The notes under the pieces: model-generated
What the model was told of the DNA's origin: nothing
Seen by the model: the letters and a program-made list of their open reading frames with translations, nothing else
Databases searched by the model: none
Position numbers and translations under genes: made by a program
In this document: piece after piece, positions 235-44,776 of the stretch
How positions within the stretch are numbered: the stretch's first letter is position 1
How the letters are laid out: each line of letters starts with the position of its first letter
Sequence record: NC_073075
DNA from: Escherichia phage ZCEC10
Length of the DNA stretch: 44,776 nucleotides
Strand: one strand, 5' to 3'

Positions 235-564
235 ATGAATGTAAACGACGCAATCGAAATGTTAACGAAGACTGTTTGCAGTGAGACAAGCCGGTCATGG
301 GCTTATACCGATGCCGTGGGTGCGGTGTTATTTGAAATCGAGCGCCTGCGCAGTGTCGAAAAAGAATTGCGCGCCCGGCTGGAATTACTCAACGGTACGG
401 CAGCAAGCAAGCTGCAAAAACACAATGAAGAAATGGAAGAATACAAAAAGCAGGTTATCCGTTTGCGCGCCGAGGGTAAATCGTGGGCGATGATTGCCGA
501 GTTGACCGGAATTAATCAGAGCACAGTGCGCTCTTGGGTACGCAATAATAAAACTTCTAAGTAA
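235..564 (+). CDS. Helix-turn-helix DNA-binding protein, putative transcriptional regulator
   Basis: 109-aa ORF; C-terminal GKSWAMIAELTGINQSTVRSWVRN is a classic HTH; GAGGG RBS upstream. Confidence 0.6.
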   Translation: MNVNDAIEMLTKTVCSETSRSWAYTDAVGAVLFEIERLRSVEKELRARLELLNGTAASKLQKHNEEMEEYKKQVIRLRAEGKSWAMIAELTGINQSTVRSWVRNNKTSK

Positions 565-3110: not shown

Positions 3111-3263
3111 TCCGGGGATTGCAAAATACACGGCAGCAGGATGCGAATCGCGGTCGTGGGCGAACTAGGCAACCAATGCGATATGTATTATGTGGAGTGA
3201 AAAACGCAGTTTGCAGCCACAGCAGATAGCGATCAACTTTTTCATGCGCGTGATTAATATTGG

Positions 3264-3292
3264 TTGCACTTGACCCGGCACCTTGCTATATT
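3264..3292 (+). promoter_or_regulatory. Sigma70-like promoter (TTGCAC-17-TATATT) flanked by two ATTGGTTGCAC motif copies
   Basis: -35 TTGCAC 3264..3269, 17-nt spacer, -10 TATATT 3287..3292; downstream gene starts at 3320. Confidence 0.5.
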
Positions 3293-3319
3293 GGTTGCAC
3301 ACCAACAGGAGGGCAGAAC

Positions 3320-3499
3320 ATGAAAACCGAAATGGTTAATAAGCGCGAAATCAAGATCGGCGATACGGTAGTCCACAACGGGGAGCTTCGCACTGTGTGC
3401 AAGCGGGCGTTTAGCATAGATGAATTTATGGGCCTGCTACTTTGGGGCGACAGCTATCGTTTAGGGCATAAACTGGTTGAGAGGGTTACGGAACTATGA
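3320..3499 (+). CDS. Hypothetical protein (59 aa)
   Basis: ATG preceded by AGGAGGG RBS; stop overlaps next gene start (ATGA). Confidence 0.45.
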   Translation: MKTEMVNKREIKIGDTVVHNGELRTVCKRAFSIDEFMGLLLWGDSYRLGHKLVERVTEL

Positions 3500-3801
3500 A
3501 AGCACTAATCTGGAATTACACAATGGCCGTGGCAAAGCTGGACGAAGCGAAGGCACTCAACGGCAACGTAGATCAGGCGCTTCAGGTTGCGATAATGGCA
3601 CATCAATCAATCCGGAGCGCGCTTTATGGTATGGACGCCAGCCTGGACGAACTGAAGCCGTTGCGTATGGCAATCCACGAATACGCGATGGCATTCTCCC
3701 GTGAGCGCCTGGCCTATCGCTTCGGTATTGGCGATAAGGCAGTGACAAACGTCGCCCGGATTAAAGCCCAGCGCGAACTATTCGCCCAGCTTGCGAAATA
3801 A
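3496..3801 (+). CDS. Hypothetical protein
   Basis: 101-aa ORF, translationally coupled to upstream gene. Confidence 0.55.
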   Translation: MKALIWNYTMAVAKLDEAKALNGNVDQALQVAIMAHQSIRSALYGMDASLDELKPLRMAIHEYAMAFSRERLAYRFGIGDKAVTNVARIKAQRELFAQLAK

Positions 3802-3810
3802 GGGGCCAAA

Positions 3811-4080
3811 ATGAGCCGTAGGCGCGCCAAACAGCTTTCGTGGCATATTCCCCTGCATTGCATACGAATATGGGCTGAGAATGCGAATGCGGGCGAATCG
3901 GTATTCTGGTGCTATCGCGATGACGTGAAGCCACTGACGCAGACTCGCTACTTGCACCAGTTTGCAGCACAACACGATTTCAGGGTGCGGACTTCCTTGC
4001 AACCAATGGGGGTCCGTATTACATTACGCCGGAAGCCCGCCGTTGAGAGGGTAGGCAAACACTGGAGACTGGCAAAATGA
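3811..4080 (+). CDS. Hypothetical basic protein
   Basis: 89-aa ORF, RBS-like GGGGCC upstream. Confidence 0.45.
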   Translation: MSRRRAKQLSWHIPLHCIRIWAENANAGESVFWCYRDDVKPLTQTRYLHQFAAQHDFRVRTSLQPMGVRITLRRKPAVERVGKHWRLAK

Positions 4081-4241
4081 ACAAGCAACCTGAACGCTGG
4101 CGGAGTAAGGCCACGCGACTGACTTACTTCGTGACAGAAGAAGCAAACGGCAACGTGACTATTTCACACCCTAAGTGTGGTACTCGACGCACTATCTCGC
4201 GCCTCACATTAGTTCGTAACTACAGGAGATTGACAGAATGA
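4077..4241 (+). CDS. Hypothetical small protein (54 aa)
   Basis: ORF below the track cutoff; ATGA overlaps with both neighbours. Confidence 0.3.
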   Translation: MNKQPERWRSKATRLTYFVTEEANGNVTISHPKCGTRRTISRLTLVRNYRRLTE

Positions 4242-4780
4242 AATTACTATTTCGCCGTAAGCACGATGGCAAAATCCTGAAGCCGAGCCAGACCCTGGAT
4301 TCCTACGTCCGCCTACAAAACGCGGCAGGCAATCGGGTGTGGCGGGCGCCGAAACACACGCTGCCGCAGTTCTTCGACGTACTCACGCACGATATTGAGC
4401 GCGGCGATGTGCTGCGTGATATCCGCGACGGGCAACTGTGGATCGTGGGGTATGTTGGTTTTTACCGCATTCGTATGCAGACCCGCGCGGGTGGAGTTGC
4501 GGGCAACATACAGAGGGGTATGACCTACTTCGAGCTGGTCAACTACGAGCGCGTAGGCCGCAAATACTGCCTGCGCAACCGCCAGCCGCATGAGCGCGCT
4601 ACTTACGACGCTACCCAGGTGCAATCTAAAATTCGCCATGCCACGCGTGAGATAGTCAATCGCTTTGATGCCGTGACGAATGCACAGCGCCAGGCGCGGG
4701 AATACGGCGTGGGATTCATCCGTGTCGAACAAGACGGCAGCATGAACGCCATTGACCCGCGCTCGGTGATTCTGAAATGA
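4238..4780 (+). CDS. Hypothetical protein
   Basis: 180-aa ORF with AGGAG RBS 7 nt upstream; opposite-strand ORF 4313..4786 judged a shadow. Confidence 0.6.
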   Translation: MKLLFRRKHDGKILKPSQTLDSYVRLQNAAGNRVWRAPKHTLPQFFDVLTHDIERGDVLRDIRDGQLWIVGYVGFYRIRMQTRAGGVAGNIQRGMTYFELVNYERVGRKYCLRNRQPHERATYDATQVQSKIRHATREIVNRFDAVTNAQRQAREYGVGFIRVEQDGSMNAIDPRSVILK

Positions 4781-4914
4781 GCGCAACTATCCGTGATATG
4801 CTCATGCATAACCGCTTTGAGATAGGCGGTAGGGTGTTTCGCAATTACTTCGTGGCGCGTGCCTGGGCGCGCCATATTGGAAAACCAGAGGGGGCAATAC
4901 GATGCTACACGATT
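4777..4914 (+). CDS. Hypothetical small protein (45 aa)
   Basis: ATGA overlap with upstream stop; low confidence. Confidence 0.25.
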
Positions 4915-4972
4915 TGATATATTGGTTTGGATTGGCCTGCGCGGTACTCCTGATCGGTGTCATGGGGCGTTG
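4901..4972 (+). CDS. Possible 23-aa transmembrane mini-ORF, paralogous to the N-terminus of the next gene
   Basis: MLHDLIYWFGLACAVLLIGVMGR with AGAGGGGG RBS; resembles MIHDVIYWFGMASMLCMVTGVLG of the 4996 ORF. Confidence 0.25.
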
Positions 4973-4995
4973 ATTATTAGTCTGGTTAAATACCT

Positions 4996-5295
4996 ATGGA
5001 GCAGATTATGATTCATGATGTGATTTATTGGTTTGGTATGGCCAGCATGTTATGCATGGTTACGGGAGTGCTGGGCGCAATATGGGTATTCCTAGTATGG
5101 CCTGCGGTGGAAGCTGCCAGCATTACCCGGATGACATTCCAGATATACAAGCGCCGTGGAATCACGGAGCACCCGACCAGGTTGCGCATGTGGTGGCTGT
5201 GGTATCGGGATATGATAGGCGGGCGAACATTCGAAGCCGTCCGGTCGAGTGGATGGGAGTGGAAAGGCGTCGGCAAGTGGTCCGTTTTCGATTAA
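4996..5295 (+). CDS. Small membrane protein (single N-terminal TM), possible lysis regulator
   Basis: 99 aa, hydrophobic N-terminus, basic and Trp-rich C-terminus. Confidence 0.5.
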   Translation: MEQIMIHDVIYWFGMASMLCMVTGVLGAIWVFLVWPAVEAASITRMTFQIYKRRGITEHPTRLRMWWLWYRDMIGGRTFEAVRSSGWEWKGVGKWSVFD

Positions 5296-6900: not shown

Positions 6901-8043
6901 ATGCACCCGCAAACTAAAATCACCGACGAGCAATTGATCGCCGAGTTGCAATCCGGCACTACCGCGAAAGAGATTGCGAAGAAGTACGGCCTTTCCCTCC
7001 GAAATGTCTACATGCGAAAAGCCCGCCTTTCGAAGAAAGGGATTGGTCACGGCAACGATGCCGTAATCCGTAAGCGCGTTGCCGATGGCTTCGGCGTTAA
7101 GCGCGTATCCGCCCTGGTGCGCGGCAATGGCGAGGAGGTCATGTCCTGGGTCATCACCGAGCAGGACAAGGAGCGCCAACTCGAGGCAATGCGCGCCGTT
7201 GTCGAAGGGATGAACAGCGAAATCACACCGGCAGCGCCAGTAAACGCCCCGCCAGTACCGATCCAGGCGCTCGACTTACTCAACCTGTACACCGTGTCAG
7301 ACTTCCACCTGGGCATGTTGGCCTGGGGCGAGGAGACTGGCGAAGACTGGGATATGGCGATTGCCGAAGACCTGTTCTACCGCTGGTTTGTCGAAGCCTT
7401 CGCACGCGCACCAGATGCAGGCACTGCCGTAATTAATATCCTCGGTGATATGGCGCACTTTGATAGCCTTGATGCCGTCACACCTGCCAGCGGTCACATA
7501 CTGGACGCTGACACCCGCTACCAGAAACTGGTCCGATACATGATTCGCATGGTGCGCAACGTAGTCGAACTGGCGCTGCAAAAACACCACAAAGTCAAAC
7601 TGCTAATCGTCCAGGGGAATCATGACGAGTCGGGTATGATTTGGCTGGCTGAGATGTTCAATACTCTGTACGAGAACGAGCCGCGCGTCGATGTGGATAC
7701 GTCCCCTGACGTCTACAAAATGGTGCAGCACGGCAAGACCACGCTATTCTTCCACCACGGGCACAAAGCGCGATTCGATGCGATCGAGCAGGTTATGATT
7801 TCTAAATTCAGACAGGCTTTCGGGTCCAGTGAGTACAGCTACGCGCACGTAGGCCACTTGCACCACCAGAAGATTGTAGAATCCCGCAACATGATTGTTG
7901 AACAGCACCGAACACTCGCCGCGAAAGACGCATATGCCAGCCGTGGTGGTTGGATGTCCGGTCGCAGCGCAAACGTCATCACCTACAGCGCCAACTACGG
8001 CGAAGTAGCGCGCTTAACCATTAGCCCGGAAATGTTGAAGTAA
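6901..8043 (+). CDS. HTH domain fused to a calcineurin-like metallophosphoesterase
   Basis: 380 aa; N-terminal HTH (TAKEIAKKYGLSLRNVYMRKARL); metallophosphatase motifs DFHLG, GDMAHFD, QGNHDE, HHGHK, GHLHHQ. Confidence 0.7.
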   Translation: MHPQTKITDEQLIAELQSGTTAKEIAKKYGLSLRNVYMRKARLSKKGIGHGNDAVIRKRVADGFGVKRVSALVRGNGEEVMSWVITEQDKERQLEAMRAVVEGMNSEITPAAPVNAPPVPIQALDLLNLYTVSDFHLGMLAWGEETGEDWDMAIAEDLFYRWFVEAFARAPDAGTAVINILGDMAHFDSLDAVTPASGHILDADTRYQKLVRYMIRMVRNVVELALQKHHKVKLLIVQGNHDESGMIWLAEMFNTLYENEPRVDVDTSPDVYKMVQHGKTTLFFHHGHKARFDAIEQVMISKFRQAFGSSEYSYAHVGHLHHQKIVESRNMIVEQHRTLAAKDAYASRGGWMSGRSANVITYSANYGEVARLTISPEMLK

Positions 8044-8062
8044 CGGCGACCCGTAACCCTCC

Positions 8063-8089
8063 CAGCCTGCCGATTTGGTGGGCTTTTTT
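8063..8089 (+). terminator. Putative rho-independent terminator
   Basis: Imperfect stem agcctgcc/ggtgggct followed by TTTTTT. Confidence 0.45.
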
Positions 8090-8094
8090 GTGCC

Positions 8095-8103
8095 TGTTAT
8101 AAT
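8095..8103 (+). promoter_or_regulatory. Possible extended -10 promoter element (TGtTATAAT) upstream of terminase small subunit
   Basis: TGTTATAAT at 8095..8103 about 70 nt upstream of the ATG at 8174. Confidence 0.35.
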
Positions 8104-8173
8104 CCCAATTAGATGGCAGGGCCGTCTCCTATGTTGCCGATGGTCGGCGCATATGCACAAAAGGGCTTATATC

Positions 8174-8725
8174 ATGGCAGAAATCAAAGTTAAGGGCCGA
8201 CGCGCCAAACTGGACGGACGAGTGGCAGTAACCCCGCGCCGTAAACCAGGCGAGCAAACAGAACATACCAATCTCGGACCTGAGATCGAATATGGCAAGC
8301 GTCGTAAAGGCGGCAAATGTGGGCGCCCTACTGACTACCGATCCGTTTACTGCGACCAGCTTCGCCGCTATTTTGCCGACGCCGACGCCTGGCAGGTAAA
8401 CTACTCCGATAAAGGCGCTGCGCAAGTAATCCCCCGCAACAAAATGCCAACCTTCGGTCGATTTGCCGCGGAAATCGGCGTGGGCGTAGCTTGCCTGTAT
8501 CGCTGGGCGCGTGCGCATGAGGAGTTCGCCGAGGCGATGGCGGACGCTATGGAGTTGCAGAAAACATTCCTGATGGAAGCTGGCGGCGTGACCATCGCGG
8601 CAGGCTTCGCTACGTTCCTACTTAAAGCCAACCACGGCGTCCGCGATGATGTTCCACTGGATGACGACGAAGATGATAACGGCGACGTCGTTGTGGAACC
8701 TACCGGCAAAGGCCAGGGTGAGTAA
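8174..8725 (+). CDS. Terminase small subunit
   Basis: 183 aa directly upstream of and overlapping the large terminase; HTH-like segment PTFGRFAAEIGVGVACLYRWARAHEEFAEA; acidic C-terminus. Confidence 0.6.
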   Translation: MAEIKVKGRRAKLDGRVAVTPRRKPGEQTEHTNLGPEIEYGKRRKGGKCGRPTDYRSVYCDQLRRYFADADAWQVNYSDKGAAQVIPRNKMPTFGRFAAEIGVGVACLYRWARAHEEFAEAMADAMELQKTFLMEAGGVTIAAGFATFLLKANHGVRDDVPLDDDEDDNGDVVVEPTGKGQGE

Positions 8726-13051: not shown

Positions 13052-13163
13052 CCCGTCCGCAGACCCCGACGAGGATTTGATGATTGACGTGAAAAATATG
13101 GAATGCGGGGCGAAGCTGAGGGCGCAGGTCCTGGAGTTGCAGCAAATAATTAAGGGGCCGTAA
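12933..13163 (+). CDS. o-spanin (Rz1-like lipoprotein) embedded in/overlapping the i-spanin gene
   Basis: 76 aa, signal peptide with lipobox LSAC, Pro-rich mature part; RBS AAAGAGG. Confidence 0.55.
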   Translation: MLRALTALIVVLMLSACGSSNVPLMPLTESALRPPCKFDNPSADPDEDLMIDVKNMECGAKLRAQVLELQQIIKGP

Positions 13164-13177
13164 TGGCCCCCTTTTGT
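13153..13177. terminator. Bidirectional rho-independent terminator between convergent genes
   Basis: Stem ggggcc/ggcccc with loop gtaat, AT-rich on both flanks. Confidence 0.7.
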
Positions 13178-13941
13178 TAGCGCGGAATACCGCAGATTTC
13201 GTTTAACGTCTTCACGTCCAGCGCCACCGCCGTGGACTTCAGCTTATCCGGGTATGGAATAAACTGTTCAACTTCAGGCCATGCTTTGATCAGCTTCTTA
13301 TCGGTATTGTGCATATCCAGCACGCCGGTAACAGTAAGTTTGAACGCGTCATACTTAGCTCGCAAATCGCGGCGGGCCTTGTCGTTACGGTCTAGTCGCT
13401 TGCAGAAATCGTGGTCCGCTGGGTAGTCTACACGACCGCGCGGAAGATATATCGGCAGCGCTTTCCCGTCCTCGTCGACTTCGCACACTGACGCGAGCAT
13501 AACTGTCTCGAACCCCGGAACGATATCGCCGAGATCAGGAGCGAGCTTATCCATATATTTCTCTTCCCAGTACCCGCGACGTACTCGGAATCGGTGTCCG
13601 TCTCCGCTCAATGACAGTGTGCGCACATTTCCGCCTGCGTTGATTTCGAAAGTGGCGTCGTAAACGCTGCCGATGCCTTTTGGGCGGTCGGCGTTATAAC
13701 TATACGTCGCCTTGTTGGTGTATACGCATACTCCGTACATCTGCGACGGGTCATCGCCGATTGCTTCAATGCGCGCGAGTAGCTCGGCGAATGTGCGAAT
13801 GCCTTCCGGCATACAGTCCAGCGTAATGTCATACGCCAGGTCGCGTGAGTCCATCATTATTGATTTGGCTTCGGTCGCGATTTCGTGGTCGCGCAGGATG
13901 TTAGCCAGAATCTGGTTTTTAATGTCTTTCGTCAGTCTCAT
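13177..13941 (-). CDS. Hypothetical protein (254 aa), antisense island within the head module
   Basis: Long clean ORF on the minus strand; no recognisable motifs. Confidence 0.7.
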   Translation of the reverse strand: MRLTKDIKNQILANILRDHEIATEAKSIMMDSRDLAYDITLDCMPEGIRTFAELLARIEAIGDDPSQMYGVCVYTNKATYSYNADRPKGIGSVYDATFEINAGGNVRTLSLSGDGHRFRVRRGYWEEKYMDKLAPDLGDIVPGFETVMLASVCEVDEDGKALPIYLPRGRVDYPADHDFCKRLDRNDKARRDLRAKYDAFKLTVTGVLDMHNTDKKLIKAWPEVEQFIPYPDKLKSTAVALDVKTLNEICGIPR

Positions 13942-13980
13942 TTGTGTGTCCTCGTGGTGGGGGCTTTCGCCCCGTTTGGT

Positions 13981-14295
13981 TTAGTTAAACTTGATGTTGC
14001 CGCCGGTGGAAGTTAAGCGAGCGCATACAGCTTCAACGGCATCGACGCACATGAAATCGTTAAAGGCTTCTACCAGGGCTTTGATGAAAGATGCCGGAAC
14101 CAGACCGCAAGCCGGATTGTCGAAGGTTGCAGAATTGATTGCGGCCTTCGCGGCTTCAGTAGCGTTCATGCTCTGGCACAGATTCAACGCTTCGGCGTTA
14201 CGCATTGCGTGAAAGGTAAAGGTATTGGCTACGGTAGCTTTATTGAAACGGGTCATTGCTACGTCTACTGGAGTTGCTACGGTCATGTTAGTCAT
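13981..14295 (-). CDS. Hypothetical protein (104 aa), first gene of the antisense island
   Basis: ATG at 14295 with AAGGAAAA RBS; the longer track ORF extending to 14748 is an N-terminal shadow over the scaffold gene. Confidence 0.55.
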   Translation of the reverse strand: MTNMTVATPVDVAMTRFNKATVANTFTFHAMRNAEALNLCQSMNATEAAKAAINSATFDNPACGLVPASFIKALVEAFNDFMCVDAVEAVCARLTSTGGNIKFN

Positions 14296-14330
14296 TTTGT
14301 TTTCCTTCATATCTCTGTTGGTGTGCAACC

Positions 14331-14359
14331 AATATATGCAACCAATACGAGGATTGCAA
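14331..14359 (-). promoter_or_regulatory. Sigma70-like promoter for the antisense island (TTGCAA-17-TATATT, minus strand)
   Basis: Minus-strand -35 TTGCAA (14354..14359), 17-nt spacer containing ATTGGTTGCA, -10 TATATT (14331..14336). Confidence 0.5.
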
Positions 14360-14449
14360 GCGAATTTTGCGATTATTTTTATCGCTGATAATATTAGAAG
14401 CGTGAAGTCGAGCGGGTGGCCCGCTCTGCCACAATCCCAGGGGGATAGC

Positions 14450-15154
14450 ATGAAACTTACTAAAGCAGAATATGACGCGTTGCCGGAAGGTATGAAGGCG
14501 CTTTTTGTTGCCGATGGCGACGGGTATAAATCAACGTTCATGACCGCAGAAGAAGTACAGGCGGAAATTAAGGGTCTGAAAGACAACAACGCGAAGCTGG
14601 TGAGCGAGAAGAAAGCAGAAGCCGAACGCCGCGCAGAAGCTGAGCGCCTTGCGAAAGAGAAAGAGGAAGCCGCCGCGCGCAAAAATGGCGACCTCGAAGC
14701 GATCGACAAGTCCTGGAAAGATAAGTTTGCGAAACACGAAGCAGACACATCGGGAAAAATCGAAGCCTACCGCAAGCAGATCCACGATCTAACCATCGGC
14801 AGCGCTGCCAAAGACCTGGCGTCGAAGCTGTTCGGTAAGAATGCGGGCATCATGCAACGCCACGTAATGGACCGCCTGACGCTGGAAGACGGCGAAGACG
14901 GCAGCTTGAAAGTGCGAGTATTGCAGGATGGCAAACCGTCCGCGCTGACTATGGAAGAGCTGGAAAAAGAGTTCCGTAATAACGCCGATTTTGCATCCGT
15001 CCTGGCTGGCACGCCAGCAGGCGGCGCGCCTAGCAAACCGACGCAGGTTGTCGAAGATGTGAAGTCGAAAATTACGATGGGCCATAGCTTCGGTATCACC
15101 GATCTCACCAAACAGGCGGGGGATATCATCGCGAAGATGGGCGACGACGAGTAA
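14450..15154 (+). CDS. Scaffolding-like protein
   Basis: 234 aa, Ala/Glu/Lys-rich coiled coil, directly upstream of major capsid gene; RBS AGGGGG. Confidence 0.6.
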   Translation: MKLTKAEYDALPEGMKALFVADGDGYKSTFMTAEEVQAEIKGLKDNNAKLVSEKKAEAERRAEAERLAKEKEEAAARKNGDLEAIDKSWKDKFAKHEADTSGKIEAYRKQIHDLTIGSAAKDLASKLFGKNAGIMQRHVMDRLTLEDGEDGSLKVRVLQDGKPSALTMEELEKEFRNNADFASVLAGTPAGGAPSKPTQVVEDVKSKITMGHSFGITDLTKQAGDIIAKMGDDE

Positions 15155-17385: not shown

Positions 17386-17979
17386 GTGGCTGAAGTCTAC
17401 TCATTCGCCGCCACTATTGCTACGTGGGTGGATAAGACGAAGGAGAACAACGATAAGGCGGTGCGGGCGTACGGGATGCAAATACTCGGACGCCTTATTG
17501 AGATCTCCCCGGTGGGCGACCCCCGCCGGTGGAAAATTAACAGGGCTTACGCGCTGGCCCGCCAGCACGCGAACAAGGTGAACGCCGCGCAGCGTCGCAA
17601 GAATGGTGGCAAACTGAAGCGCGGGCAGAAAAAGCACGCCAGCGTGCTGGTATCATTCAAGACTAAAAACGGCAACGTCACGTTCCGCCAGCGTGGCTGG
17701 GCTGCGAAGAATTACACCGGCGGACGCTTCCGGGGAAACTGGCAGGTTACGTTCGACCGACCGGCGGTTGGCGCTATAGACCGCGTGGACAAGGCCGGAA
17801 CGGCAACATTAGCCGCTGGGCGTGAAGTGCTGGCGCATTACGATTCAAGTGAATACGGGTCGATCTGGTTTACTAACAACGTGCCATACGCGCAGCGACT
17901 TGAGTATGGCTGGAGTAAACAAGCGCCCGCGGGGATTGTTCGCGTCGTAGCGGCAGAAATTAATTCGAAGGTGAAATAA
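17386..17979 (+). CDS. Neck/tail component
   Basis: 197 aa in the neck gene block; GTG start likely. Confidence 0.5.
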   Translation: MAEVYSFAATIATWVDKTKENNDKAVRAYGMQILGRLIEISPVGDPRRWKINRAYALARQHANKVNAAQRRKNGGKLKRGQKKHASVLVSFKTKNGNVTFRQRGWAAKNYTGGRFRGNWQVTFDRPAVGAIDRVDKAGTATLAAGREVLAHYDSSEYGSIWFTNNVPYAQRLEYGWSKQAPAGIVRVVAAEINSKVK

Positions 17980-18401
17980 TGAGCAATACCGCAATCCGCA
18001 AAGCGCTTAACAGCGTGGTTGATGAGTTATCGGCAAGCCTGAGCACAAGCCAGCGTCCGATTAGGGTTAACTGGGAGAACGTGAGCGGCGACCACGCAAA
18101 CGGCAGCGGTGTCTACCTGGAGCCGTACCTGCTACCGGCCCCGACCCAGTTTGTGGGCTTACAGCAGAAGGGCCGGATCTATGCTGGCGTATATCAGGTT
18201 GCCGTGGTGTTTCCGGCTGGCACTGGCACACAGTACGCGAGCGAACTGGCGGACGCCATCGCTACGTCGGATAAGTGGCTGGCGGTGAAGATTTCCGGCG
18301 CGTCATTTCAGCTTCAGGACGCGCCATACACCAGTTCAGTGATTGAAGACGTTGATCGCGCCCGCATTGTGGTTACAGTCCCCTACACCTGTTGCGCCTG
18401 A
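17979..18401 (+). CDS. Tail completion / terminator protein
   Basis: 140 aa directly upstream of major tail protein. Confidence 0.5.
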   Translation: MSNTAIRKALNSVVDELSASLSTSQRPIRVNWENVSGDHANGSGVYLEPYLLPAPTQFVGLQQKGRIYAGVYQVAVVFPAGTGTQYASELADAIATSDKWLAVKISGASFQLQDAPYTSSVIEDVDRARIVVTVPYTCCA

Positions 18402-30164: not shown

Positions 30165-30190
30165 AAAAGCCCCGTTCGGGGCTTATTTGC
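30164..30190. terminator. Bidirectional terminator between convergent genes
   Basis: A-run, stem gcccc/ggggc with loop gttc, then T-rich tract. Confidence 0.65.
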
Positions 30191-30401
30191 AGGTTGTTCT
30201 TTTGAAGTTGTCGATAGACACATACTGGAAGTTGAATGGGTATCCCGCCCGTAACATTTTATGACCGCTAACGTCTGCAACCCCAAACACAGGGACGGAA
30301 TACTCCATACCACTATTCATGTATGTTGCGTCGCAGATTTTAGACGGCATGTCGGCACAACCGGACAAAAGAACCGCACAAATCATAATTAAAGTTTTCA
30401 T
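30183..30401 (-). CDS. Small lipoprotein, candidate Cor/Llp-like superinfection exclusion protein
   Basis: 72 aa from the ATG at 30401 (AGGAG RBS); signal peptide with lipobox LLSGC; antisense gene beside the receptor-binding genes. Confidence 0.55.
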   Translation of the reverse strand: MKTLIMICAVLLSGCADMPSKICDATYMNSGMEYSVPVFGVADVSGHKMLRAGYPFNFQYVSIDNFKRTTCK

Positions 30402-30482
30402 GGTATCATCTCCTATATTTGGTTGAGTTTTAGTATTGCACCTCTCAATCAAGAATGCAACCAATTTTATGAGGATTCAGCT

Positions 30483-33562: not shown

Positions 33563-33592
33563 AAGATACTGCAACCAACCTATTGGTTGCAA
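33563..33592 (-). promoter_or_regulatory. Putative sigma70-like promoter (TTGCAA-18-TATCTT, minus strand) inside a palindromic TGCAACCAA..TTGGTTGCA element
   Basis: Minus-strand -35 at 33587..33592, -10 at 33563..33568. Confidence 0.4.
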
Positions 33593-35236: not shown

Positions 35237-35265
35237 AATATACTGCAACCAATCTAATTGTGCAA
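35237..35265 (-). promoter_or_regulatory. Sigma70-like promoter (TTGCAC-17-TATATT, minus strand) with two ATTGGTTGCA copies
   Basis: Minus-strand -35 at 35260..35265, spacer carrying ATTGGTTGCAG, -10 at 35237..35242. Confidence 0.5.
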
Positions 35266-35270
35266 CCAAT

Positions 35271-35594
35271 TTACGAATAAAAATTTGGGTCGCGCGCAAC
35301 GTCTACCAGATACAGGTTACTAATGCGGTTGCCGTAATGGCCTGGTGTGCGTTGACGGCACACTACGGCATAGCCTGGAGGGATTGTATTGCCAGTCTCA
35401 ATAATCCACGCCACGCGTGCGCCAGACAGCGTCTTGCCGTTGCATTCGATACGAGTACCGCCATCGGCGGTATTGAGGTTGCCAATCTTGCAGCCTGTGG
35501 ACTTCAGACGAATGACGCCGGTTTTGCTGTCGTAGGAGAATAACTGGTTAGTCATTGCGACCGAAAAATCGATGGCTTCGAATGTAGTGTTCAT
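35271..35594 (-). CDS. HNH/AP2-like endonuclease-related protein, possibly degenerate
   Basis: 107 aa; YDSKTGVIRLK...GARVAWIIETG...NRISNLYLV resembles the HNH_3 pattern but lacks a clear catalytic His. Confidence 0.4.
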   Translation of the reverse strand: MNTTFEAIDFSVAMTNQLFSYDSKTGVIRLKSTGCKIGNLNTADGGTRIECNGKTLSGARVAWIIETGNTIPPGYAVVCRQRTPGHYGNRISNLYLVDVARDPNFYS

Positions 35595-38202: not shown

Positions 38203-38481
38203 CTATGCGACCAATTCAGCAACCAATAAATCACAGTCGGCGATGTTGTCTATAACGCGAACGTCCGCGCCGCGGCGGGCCATCCGCTCATGTTCACGTA
38301 CCTGGTGCGGCTTCGGTTTTCCTCCGGGGCGCTTCACTTCGACGAACACTATTTTGCCGTTGATGATGATAATCAGATCGGGCGCACCTGCGCGCCCCTC
38401 CCATGCCACTTTTCGGCAGAATCCGCCGACGGCTTTAACCAACTTCATAAGGTGACTTTGGATCTTGCCTTCTGGTGTCAT
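38203..38481 (-). CDS. VRR-NUC domain nuclease
   Basis: 92 aa; PDLIIIINGKIVFVEVKRPGG is a PD-(D/E)xK core typical of VRR-NUC; start overlaps polymerase stop. Confidence 0.7.
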   Translation of the reverse strand: MTPEGKIQSHLMKLVKAVGGFCRKVAWEGRAGAPDLIIIINGKIVFVEVKRPGGKPKPHQVREHERMARRGADVRVIDNIADCDLLVAELVA

Positions 38482-44699: not shown

Positions 44700-44776
44700 G
44701 CGTCCTGCATCCTGTCGACGGGGGGAATAATAGATTGGTTGCAGGATGGGTGTCAACAACTAATTTCAAAAAAAAA
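44700..44776. repeat. Terminal direct repeat, right copy
   Basis: Exact match to 1..77. Confidence 0.85.
44727..44756 (-). promoter_or_regulatory. Sigma70-like early leftward promoter (TTGACA-18-TATTAT, minus strand) inside the terminal repeat
   Basis: Minus-strand -35 TTGACA at 44751..44756, -10 TATTAT at 44727..44732, spacer containing TGCAACCAAT; identical copy at 28..58. Confidence 0.45.

Follow-up and report, generated by a model that had tools for sequence, protein, structure and literature searches.

An antisense accessory unit carrying an Nmad5-family gene in a variable slot between the spanin and scaffold genes of a Dhillonvirus

Here we examine an island of two minus-strand genes in Escherichia phage ZCEC10 (sequence record NC_073075), whose 44,776 nucleotides, analysed at their full length, are called the window below. 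The island consists of nmad5 (13177..13941, minus strand, 254 aa) and, ahead of it, an optional gene for a protein of 104 aa (13981..14295, minus strand). The phage belongs to the genus Dhillonvirus, and the stretches that we queried are 100% identical to Escherichia phage ZCEC11 (OK310512.1), rotated by 3,560 bases. By PHROG matches, the island is flanked on one side by a head-morphogenesis protein and Rz-like i- and o-spanins, and on the other by a head scaffolding protein (phrog_206, ATG at 14450) and the major head protein. A first-pass annotation had put two antisense genes of these lengths between the spanins and the scaffold gene, and that is indeed where both open reading frames lie, each behind a ribosome-binding site (GAGGA at 13949-13953 for nmad5; AAGGA at 14303-14307 for the 104-aa gene). 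The start of the 104-aa gene agrees both with AAGGA seven bases upstream and with homologues that start from the same residue; the mechanically called reading frame (255 aa, GTG start) and the deposited annotation of this gene (242 aa) are over-extensions. Because the ratio of nonsynonymous to synonymous substitution rates (dN/dS) lies at 0.05-0.15 (0.09-0.15 for nmad5 and 0.05-0.09 for the 104-aa gene, from four to seven relatives at a dS of 0.3-0.54), both are real genes under strong purifying selection. The GC content of the 104-aa gene is 49.5%, against 54.7% genome-wide. The deposited ZCEC11 record labels both island genes "hypothetical"; it stretches the 104-aa gene to 242 aa (window 13981-14709, record 17541-18269), across the scaffold promoter, and the scaffold gene to 309 aa (14225-15154), which overlaps the 242-aa call across the intergenic promoters.

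Contrary to the earlier statement that the products have no recognisable motifs, the 254-aa protein matches the Pfam family Nmad5 ("nucleotide modification associated domain 5", PF18757) from end to end (E = 2.6e-57; 194.7 bits, where 27 is the cut-off; residues 1-253 aligned to profile positions 1-206), as well as phrog_1965 (E = 5.3e-60). It shares with the family the full-length match and the motifs MRLT... at the N-terminus and ...TLNxxCG[IL]P at the C-terminus, and differs from typical members (186-232 aa) in being ~50 residues longer, by way of inserts in the central beta-rich part, and in lying away from any nucleotide-modification cluster. The gene-neighbourhood link to modification genes that gave the family its name is thus missing here, where the neighbours are the spanins and the scaffold gene; membership nonetheless stands, since the neighbourhood is a contextual and not a sequence-defining feature. 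Nmad5 was found in 339 phage records of the searched collection, including Stx-converting, Pseudomonas and Vibrio phages.

The AlphaFold2 model of Nmad5 (predicted local distance difference test, pLDDT, 74.7; predicted template modelling score, pTM, 0.71) is a helical bundle, built by the N-terminal helices together with a long C-terminal helix, with a beta-rich middle that is poorly modelled. Conservation is concentrated towards both termini, in columns that mostly hold hydrophobic or small residues and among which no catalytic-looking set stands out; the beta-rich insert in the centre varies. The model is confident at residues 1-40 and 171-230, and lysine 216 (K216) sits in a confident short helix adjoining the invariant L217 and W221. 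Residues 233-254, in contrast, score 47-61 despite a near-invariant sequence; because the tail is so well conserved and yet modelled with low confidence, the last ~20 residues may form a docking tail that is probably flexible. We also considered the C-terminus (TLNEICGIPR) as a helix-turn-helix and rejected it, since the protein stops directly after the turn and leaves no place for a recognition helix. Foldseek against BFVD (E <= 1e-3) returned named matches that are annotated as Nmad5 or are conserved or unnamed phage proteins (top TM-score 0.79), none of which carries a functional annotation other than Nmad5; for both Nmad5 and the 104-aa protein, sequence-profile searches of PDB gave no match at E <= 1, and NCBIfam gave none.

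The 104-aa protein, which is small, acidic and mainly helical, belongs to phrog_24635 (E = 1.5e-65; function unknown in the PHROG annotation). Its AlphaFold2 model is a small helical bundle, confident in one of five models, and we found no structural or sequence relative of known function. The family is narrow: in a HMMER search of the full library, its profile drew four matches among 1.84 billion representative proteins, one of which (repetitive, 2421 aa) was deemed spurious, and its members are confined to enterobacterial and metagenomic phages, namely Dhillonvirus, Pantoea Dibbivirus AAM37, Agtrevirus Gloob, several phages of ~150 kb and a 47-kb metagenomic phage, L004, which has a PurZ-like gene. 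A Cys3-His metal site was entertained and dropped, since two of the more distant homologues, P0078 and P0079, have V or Q in place of C83. L004 encodes a 75%-identical homologue (loci 3344-5287 and 8001-8309) together with the adenylosuccinate-synthetase-like (PurZ-type) gene, an HD/YfbR-like phosphohydrolase and, as a weak match below threshold, a MazG-like/dATP-dGTP pyrophosphohydrolase, a combination suggestive of a 2-aminoadenine (Z-base) genome.

The island has a promoter and a terminator of its own in silico, a sigma70-like site at one end and a convergent hairpin at the other. The promoter (14331..14359, minus strand) has a -35 TTGCAA (14359-14354), a 17-nt spacer and a -10 TATATT (14336-14331), as the first-pass annotation had proposed, and would start transcription near 14324. 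Scored as a bare consensus it does not rise above chance, with two sites found by the promoter scan where 3.9 are expected; it gains credibility from its setting, because the 130-bp control region from the island to the scaffold gene is 94-100% identical among relatives irrespective of cargo, compared with a dS of 0.3-0.5 in the adjacent coding DNA. The cargo boundary falls just downstream of the presumed start, at GTTGGTG near 14320. Both the -35 (TTGCAn) and the -10 are kept in every cargo configuration except that of JL1, where a 14-bp gap deletes one copy of a repeated motif (described below) and the -10; they are also kept in the metagenomic relative L005 (Nmad5 64% identical), in which the layout of the control region is still recognisable.

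At the far end, a hairpin between the o-spanin gene and nmad5 (13152..13172, both strands) folds on either strand (-14 kcal/mol on the plus strand; -15.6 kcal/mol, z -2.9, on the minus strand), in keeping with the bidirectional terminator claimed earlier. It is matched by the terminator scan on both strands and is kept in relatives, and the PTXU06 and WF5505 records mark it as a terminator. Its loop holds the o-spanin stop codon (13161-13163), so that the C-terminus of the lipoprotein spanin is encoded within the stem's 5' arm. Between the two genes, the GC hairpin that had been noted is likewise present: GGGGCGAAAGCCCC, with a GAAA loop, at 13960..13973 (minus strand, -11.4 kcal/mol, z -2.4). 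It has no U-tract on the minus strand, is followed immediately by the nmad5 ribosome-binding site, and may act as an mRNA stabiliser or partial barrier. An identical GGGGCGAAAGCCCC hairpin ends the unrelated 135-aa cassette of PTXU06, and in three other phages the homologue of the 104-aa gene is each time followed by a GC hairpin and then by the next ribosome-binding site.

Divergent from the island promoter, a putative promoter-like site for the scaffold/major-capsid unit lies at 14367..14394 (plus strand; TTGCGA, 16-nt spacer, TAATAT). At 8/12 it scores under the scan threshold; it is invariant in 10/10 aligned relatives. Next comes a hairpin in the presumed 5' leader of the scaffold mRNA (GAGCGGG-TGG-CCCGCTC, 14410..14426, plus strand, -15.8 kcal/mol, z -2.2), conserved except that some relatives have one substitution in the stem or the loop. 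Because the convergent terminator ends the spanin unit and the divergent site opens the next, the claim that the island runs against the late operon needs to be recast: the island is antisense, as stated, while the rightward structural genes form two units, with the island in the gap between them.

The island promoter also belongs to a family of related sites. A tandem 11-mer, TATTGGTTGCA (plus strand TGCAACCAATA), occurs as a direct repeat at 14324-14334 and 14337-14347 (minus strand), overlapping the promoter spacer, the -10 and the transcription start. With at most one mismatch, the motif has 13 sites in the window as against 0.67 expected (0/100 shuffles reached 13); the 13 include one site twice, since bases 44700-44776, at the end of the window, repeat bases 1-77 exactly. 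The sites lie at 34-44, 2885-2895, 3258-3268, 3289-3299, 3998-4008, 14324-14347, 30456-30466, 33581-33591, 35244-35271, 38218-38228 and 44733-44743, and phage Zumzum has 13 copies at orthologous places. Taken in reading direction, the motif contributes a -35, ATTGG+TTGCAn, followed after 17 nt by TATATT, TATAGT or AATACT. Sites precede the small genes after the primase-helicase, a ligase-like gene, a Lar-like gene and the antisense gene cor, and also occur in the divergent early control region; in the window genome none stands in front of the terminase, scaffold/capsid or tail units. The 11-mer is probably a genus-wide early-promoter or operator element. Because it otherwise precedes only non-structural genes, the island is most likely expressed early or at least outside the late class, and presumably shares an early, non-structural class of promoter; a literature search for Dhillonvirus transcription data found none.

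Several side observations attach to this motif. The 77-base repeat is what an assembler working at k=77 leaves where the ends of a circular contig overlap, and Zumzum has a single motif copy at the same position. The tandem duplication of 77 bp in the divergent early control region is probably an artefact of the deposited genome. The superinfection-exclusion gene cor (phrog_1119, 30183-30464, minus strand) is a second antisense unit, within the tail module, and the ATTGGTTGCA motif forms the -35 of its promoter-like site. At 33570-33591, at the 3' end of an HAD/PNK-like gene, two motif copies form a near-perfect palindrome, TGCAACCAAcctaTTGGTTGCA, which looks like a dimer-binding operator. A 109-aa protein (window 235-564, plus strand) encoded by the first gene of the rightward primase-helicase operon, and called "gamma nuclease inhibitor" or "transposase" in records, has a C-terminal helix-turn-helix with HTH_23 and Sigma70 region 4_2 matches above gathering thresholds; it is a candidate binder of the -35-overlapping motif.

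A comparison of the spanin/scaffold junction among relatives, which the first-pass annotation had recommended, reveals different cargo in different phages: at least seven arrangements across the genus behind one almost invariant control region. Counted by tblastn, with both totals inflated by GenBank/RefSeq duplicates, Nmad5 at >=60% identity is present in ~148 records and the 104-aa protein at >=80% identity in ~59 Dhillonvirus-type records (~40% of those carrying Nmad5); Nmad5 occupies the junction in ~90% of Dhillonvirus records. The 104-aa gene plus Nmad5 is the arrangement of the window phage (ZCEC11), YD-2008.s, Zumzum and SM_A8, and Nmad5 stands alone in BF9, Oekolampad and most others. 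In PTXU06, Nmad5 is joined by an unrelated 135-aa gene (no NCBIfam match); in WF5505 it is followed by a 184-aa beta-clamp-like protein, which in EP23 comes before it, and the clamp-like protein alone fills the slot of Sodalis phage SO-1 and JLBYU27. Decayed forms are also found: JL1 combines the 104-aa gene with a truncated Nmad5 (a 74-aa stump; L018, 1517-1741), SM_S24 has a C-terminally truncated Nmad5 (L025, 1520-2074), and Teewinot has an internal nmad5 deletion that leaves only the two ends of the gene (L010, about 2064-2200). On a metagenomic contig, ~45 residues from the start of the 104-aa protein are fused in frame to the last ~42 of Nmad5 (L020, 1299-1562; P0055). Repeated loss suggests either a cost of carrying intact Nmad5 or selection against it.

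The presence or absence of the 104-aa gene has a precise boundary between relatives. The slot and its control region are in every relative examined, and the only empty junction is that of Teewinot, with its internal deletion between the two ends of nmad5. The slot is ancestral to the genus, with a fixed control region and terminator and a variable transcribed cargo. As for the clamp-like cargo (172-186 aa, phrog_3007; L007 1583-2137, L008 2082-2600, L009 2083-2643, and EP23 JN984867.1 5929-6471), its resemblance to the DnaN beta clamp's central domain stays below threshold (E about 5e-5 in Pfam and 4.5e-7 for TIGR00663); it is found in 272 phage records under names that include "DNA pol III beta" and "RusA-like" and may be a truncated clamp mimic. 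Two further 184-aa genes were tried as relatives of the SO-1 gene in this slot (gp7) and rejected: that at the SM_S24 junction is the truncated Nmad5, and that after the 104-aa homologue in L004 has neither similarity to the clamp-like protein nor a PHROG match.

Where else Nmad5 is found bears on its origin. In three related metagenomic phage lineages it lies inside the early rightward operon, in the order homologue of the Dhillonvirus 172-aa gene, Nmad5, homologue of the 83-aa gene, DUF2800 exonuclease (55% identity), SSB (49%) and then PolA; in a fourth related lineage it adjoins PolA. Dhillonviruses carry the homologous early replication operon without Nmad5, and because relatives hold Nmad5 in that very operon, relocation into the antisense slot is the most likely history: Nmad5 would be an ancestral companion of the DUF2800-exonuclease/SSB/PolA module and not foreign cargo. 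More distantly, Yuavirus PAC5 has Nmad5 between aGPT-Pplase1 and a thymidylate-synthase-like gene, and lambdoid phage mEp235 has it in the pL operon between N and kil. In lambda, the pL accessory region between N and kil/cIII is the home of ral and sieB. A homologue occupies this region in mEp235 and, by tblastn, in Stx phages, beside recombination and anti-RecBCD genes; the genome architecture of these phages differs from that of the window phage. The shared denominator of these contexts is early DNA-metabolism operons, hypermodification clusters being a minority.

These findings qualify the description of the island as a moron cassette. Morons are said to have been defined by Hendrix and colleagues for lambdoid phages, as autonomous insertions of promoter, gene and terminator. 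The island resembles them in having its own conserved promoter and terminator, in its antisense orientation to structural flanks and in cargo that varies among close relatives; cor, with the same promoter motif, is another example in this genome, and gp7 of SO-1, in the same slot, is annotated as "possible moron gene product" in its record. It departs from them in that the slot is ancestral and Nmad5 is probably a relocated gene of a core module, found in the early replication operon of relatives. Furthermore, no integrase or repressor is annotated in the Zumzum or ZCEC11 genome maps, and the phage is treated as virulent and hence without prophage expression.

Nor is the system undescribed, as had been supposed: the larger gene belongs to a curated Pfam family and has orthologues in the same genus with published genetics. 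Yamashita et al. (2025, Commun Biol 8:290; PMC11846954) described nmad5 near the capsid gene of the Dhillonviruses SM_A8 and SMS22. Mutants of SM_A8 and of SMS22 (with anti-Tmn deleted) that escaped from cells expressing the Tmn defence system carried, respectively, Nmad5 K216E and the equivalent K296E, and reversion of the mutation restored sensitivity; deletion of nmad5 gave a viable phage that was still Tmn-sensitive, and the gene could not be cloned owing to toxicity (PMC11846954). The SM_A8 gene is orthologous to that of the window, at the same position, also 254 aa, with the same 104-aa gene ahead and with K216 and the DKKLIKAWPEVEQ segment identical; the window copy differs by a dN of about 0.056, and the published experiments were made on SM_A8 and SMS22. 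By analogy, dispensability, toxicity when cloned and K216E escape should transfer to the window copy. We also asked whether the 104-aa protein could be the published anti-Tmn, which is ORF35 of SMS22, is absent from SM_A8, and folds as a rod of helices that has a three-stranded sheet at its C-terminus (PMC11846954). This was rejected on indirect evidence, as the 104-aa protein is present in the Tmn-sensitive SM_A8 and SM_A2 and its model is unlike the described fold.

Taken together, we favour, with a confidence that is evenly divided, an explanation in which the island is a self-contained minus-strand accessory unit in a swap slot, and Nmad5 a relocated, non-enzymatic binding protein directed against a host or phage component of DNA metabolism or defence. 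The unit lies in a natural gap between rightward units, one running from terminase through the spanins and ending at 13152-13172, the other from the scaffold and capsid genes onward, with a conserved promoter-like site of its own at 14367-14394. Host RNA polymerase would start at TTGCAA-17-TATATT, make a short leader and then the 104-aa gene, pass the stable GC hairpin, continue through nmad5 and stop at the convergent terminator; the hairpin would favour the promoter-proximal gene, and the whole would be expressed with the early or non-late class. Nmad5 would be a helical-bundle protein that uses its conserved N- and C-terminal helices, including K216, and its docking tail to dock early in infection onto a conserved host (or phage) protein of DNA metabolism or defence, as a host-takeover or counter-defence factor. 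Binding to such a partner is our proposed reason for the toxicity, the dispensability, the frequent loss, and the escape from Tmn by K216E and not by deletion. The natural C-terminal truncation of Nmad5 in SM_S24, which is reported to be Tmn-sensitive (PMC11846954), fits this picture.

A number of points weigh against this explanation. The Nmad5 model is moderately confident, and two central segments have a pLDDT <50; the binding mechanism is argued from the lack of a recognisable fold, behind which a new enzyme fold may lie, and the partner is hypothetical. The region has no excess of matches to the bare promoter consensus, and the timing of expression, the start site and the function of the terminator are all deduced from the sequence. 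On the plus strand, too, the hairpin at 13960-13973 gives a terminator-like score, and it may work on either strand. Lastly, Yuavirus and M6-like phages place Nmad5 in the middle of a thymidine-hypermodification cluster (PMC9476957), which keeps a modification-linked role alive.

The strongest rival, although we consider it unlikely, is that Nmad5 assists the phage's own replication and recombination machinery and does not act on the host, for example by loading, protecting or organising phage DNA together with the DUF2800 exonuclease, SSB and PolA. In its favour, three related lineages keep Nmad5 at one place in the early replication operon, the fourth has it next to PolA and DUF2800, and mEp235 has it upstream of Erf, SSB and exonuclease; the elongated helical-hairpin architecture of the model and the beta-clamp-like protein as alternative cargo of the same slot point the same way. 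However, the published deletion shows that the gene is dispensable for plaques, and natural Dhillonviruses have repeatedly lost or truncated it; its toxicity to uninfected E. coli suggests a host target, and a point mutation alters the outcome against a host defence protein (PMC11846954).

Rather improbable, in our estimate, is the view that Nmad5 modifies DNA bases as an enzyme, or is indispensable to such a pathway without being catalytic itself, and that Tmn senses the modified DNA. The family was defined through its gene neighbourhood with modification genes, according to Iyer, Zhang, Burroughs and Aravind (2013) as represented by reference 29 of PMC11846954, and PAC5 presents just this neighbourhood, while the description of the SN1/M6 cluster counts Nmad5 among the thymidine-hypermodification genes (PMC9476957). 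In keeping with that, the published study of SM_A8 and SMS22 calls Nmad5 a DNA modification enzyme (PMC11846954), a label that our analyses of fold and context do not support. The dUMP hydroxymethylase, 5-hmU DNA kinase and aGPT-Pplase of the M6/YuA/SN1-type cluster, present in PAC5 and SN1, were not found in this genome or in well-annotated relatives, where the only methylases are of Dam and Dcm type, and most phage records with Nmad5 (lambdoid/Stx, Vibrio, Dhillonvirus) have no hypermodification cluster. Moreover, the BASEL study describes Dhillonviruses as restriction-sensitive compared with the deazaguanine-modified Queuovirinae, and no likeness in fold or motif to any enzyme was seen. Sensing by Tmn of a modification made by Nmad5 is further argued against by the published deletion, which leaves Tmn sensitivity unchanged (PMC11846954).

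Harder still to sustain is a dedicated two-component system, in which the 104-aa protein would neutralise the toxicity of Nmad5 or join it in an anti-defence complex. The genes are adjacent and co-oriented behind one promoter in ~59 records, and in the metagenomic fusion the C-terminal module of Nmad5 follows the N-terminal half of the 104-aa protein. The pairing suggested by the window breaks down across relatives, however: most Dhillonviruses have Nmad5 without the 104-aa gene, the unrelated 135-aa gene can take its position, JL1 retains it beside a truncated Nmad5, and homologues have no adjoining Nmad5 in Pantoea phage AAM37 (Dibbivirus), in Agtrevirus Gloob and in the metagenomic phage L004; in addition, SM_A8 and SM_A2 are Tmn-sensitive despite having it. 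Because it is optional and occurs without Nmad5 in unrelated phages, the 104-aa gene does not form a dedicated pair with nmad5, and its product may be an independent, optional small cargo of putatively the same general class as Nmad5.

That both proteins are conserved virion or head-assembly components on the opposite strand is very improbable: the location between head-morphogenesis/spanin and scaffold/capsid genes, shared by Nmad5 in about nine-tenths of Dhillonvirus records, would suit it, but the published nmad5 deletion is viable (PMC11846954), natural genomes with truncations and deletions lack either or both genes, Nmad5 homologues elsewhere lie in early replication or pL operons, and the island promoter is of the non-structural class.

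Returning to the binding-protein explanation, a bolder form of it seems to us doubtful, though not far-fetched: the junction would be an early-promoter-driven site at which phages exchange small proteins aimed at the host replisome or at defence NTPases, namely Nmad5, the proteins of 104 and 135 aa and a beta-clamp mimic of two domains. Nmad5 would then be an evolvable, non-enzymatic adaptor that docks onto a conserved partner through its conserved helical scaffold and flexible tail, and that single surface substitutions such as K216E would retarget to new defence proteins such as Tmn. If this adaptor reading is true, the name "nucleotide modification associated" would reflect only co-location in early DNA-metabolism operons.

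The Nmad5 family, its genetics in the same genus and moron-like accessory slots as a kind are already known. What is added here is modest: a catalogue of the slot configurations that lie behind an invariant control region, the probable move of Nmad5 out of the replication operon, its lack of an enzyme-like fold, an 11-mer promoter family and a narrow, orphan 104-aa protein. For the phage, the slot is a natural, promoter-equipped and dispensable insertion site for Dhillonvirus engineering, and the 11-mer motif offers a handle on the temporal programme of the genus. For the family, which is widespread and has a published, unexplained genetic link to Tmn, the lack of an enzyme-like fold, the rarity of modification contexts, the early-operon ancestry and a conserved tail by the escape residue move the question from which base is modified to which partner is bound.

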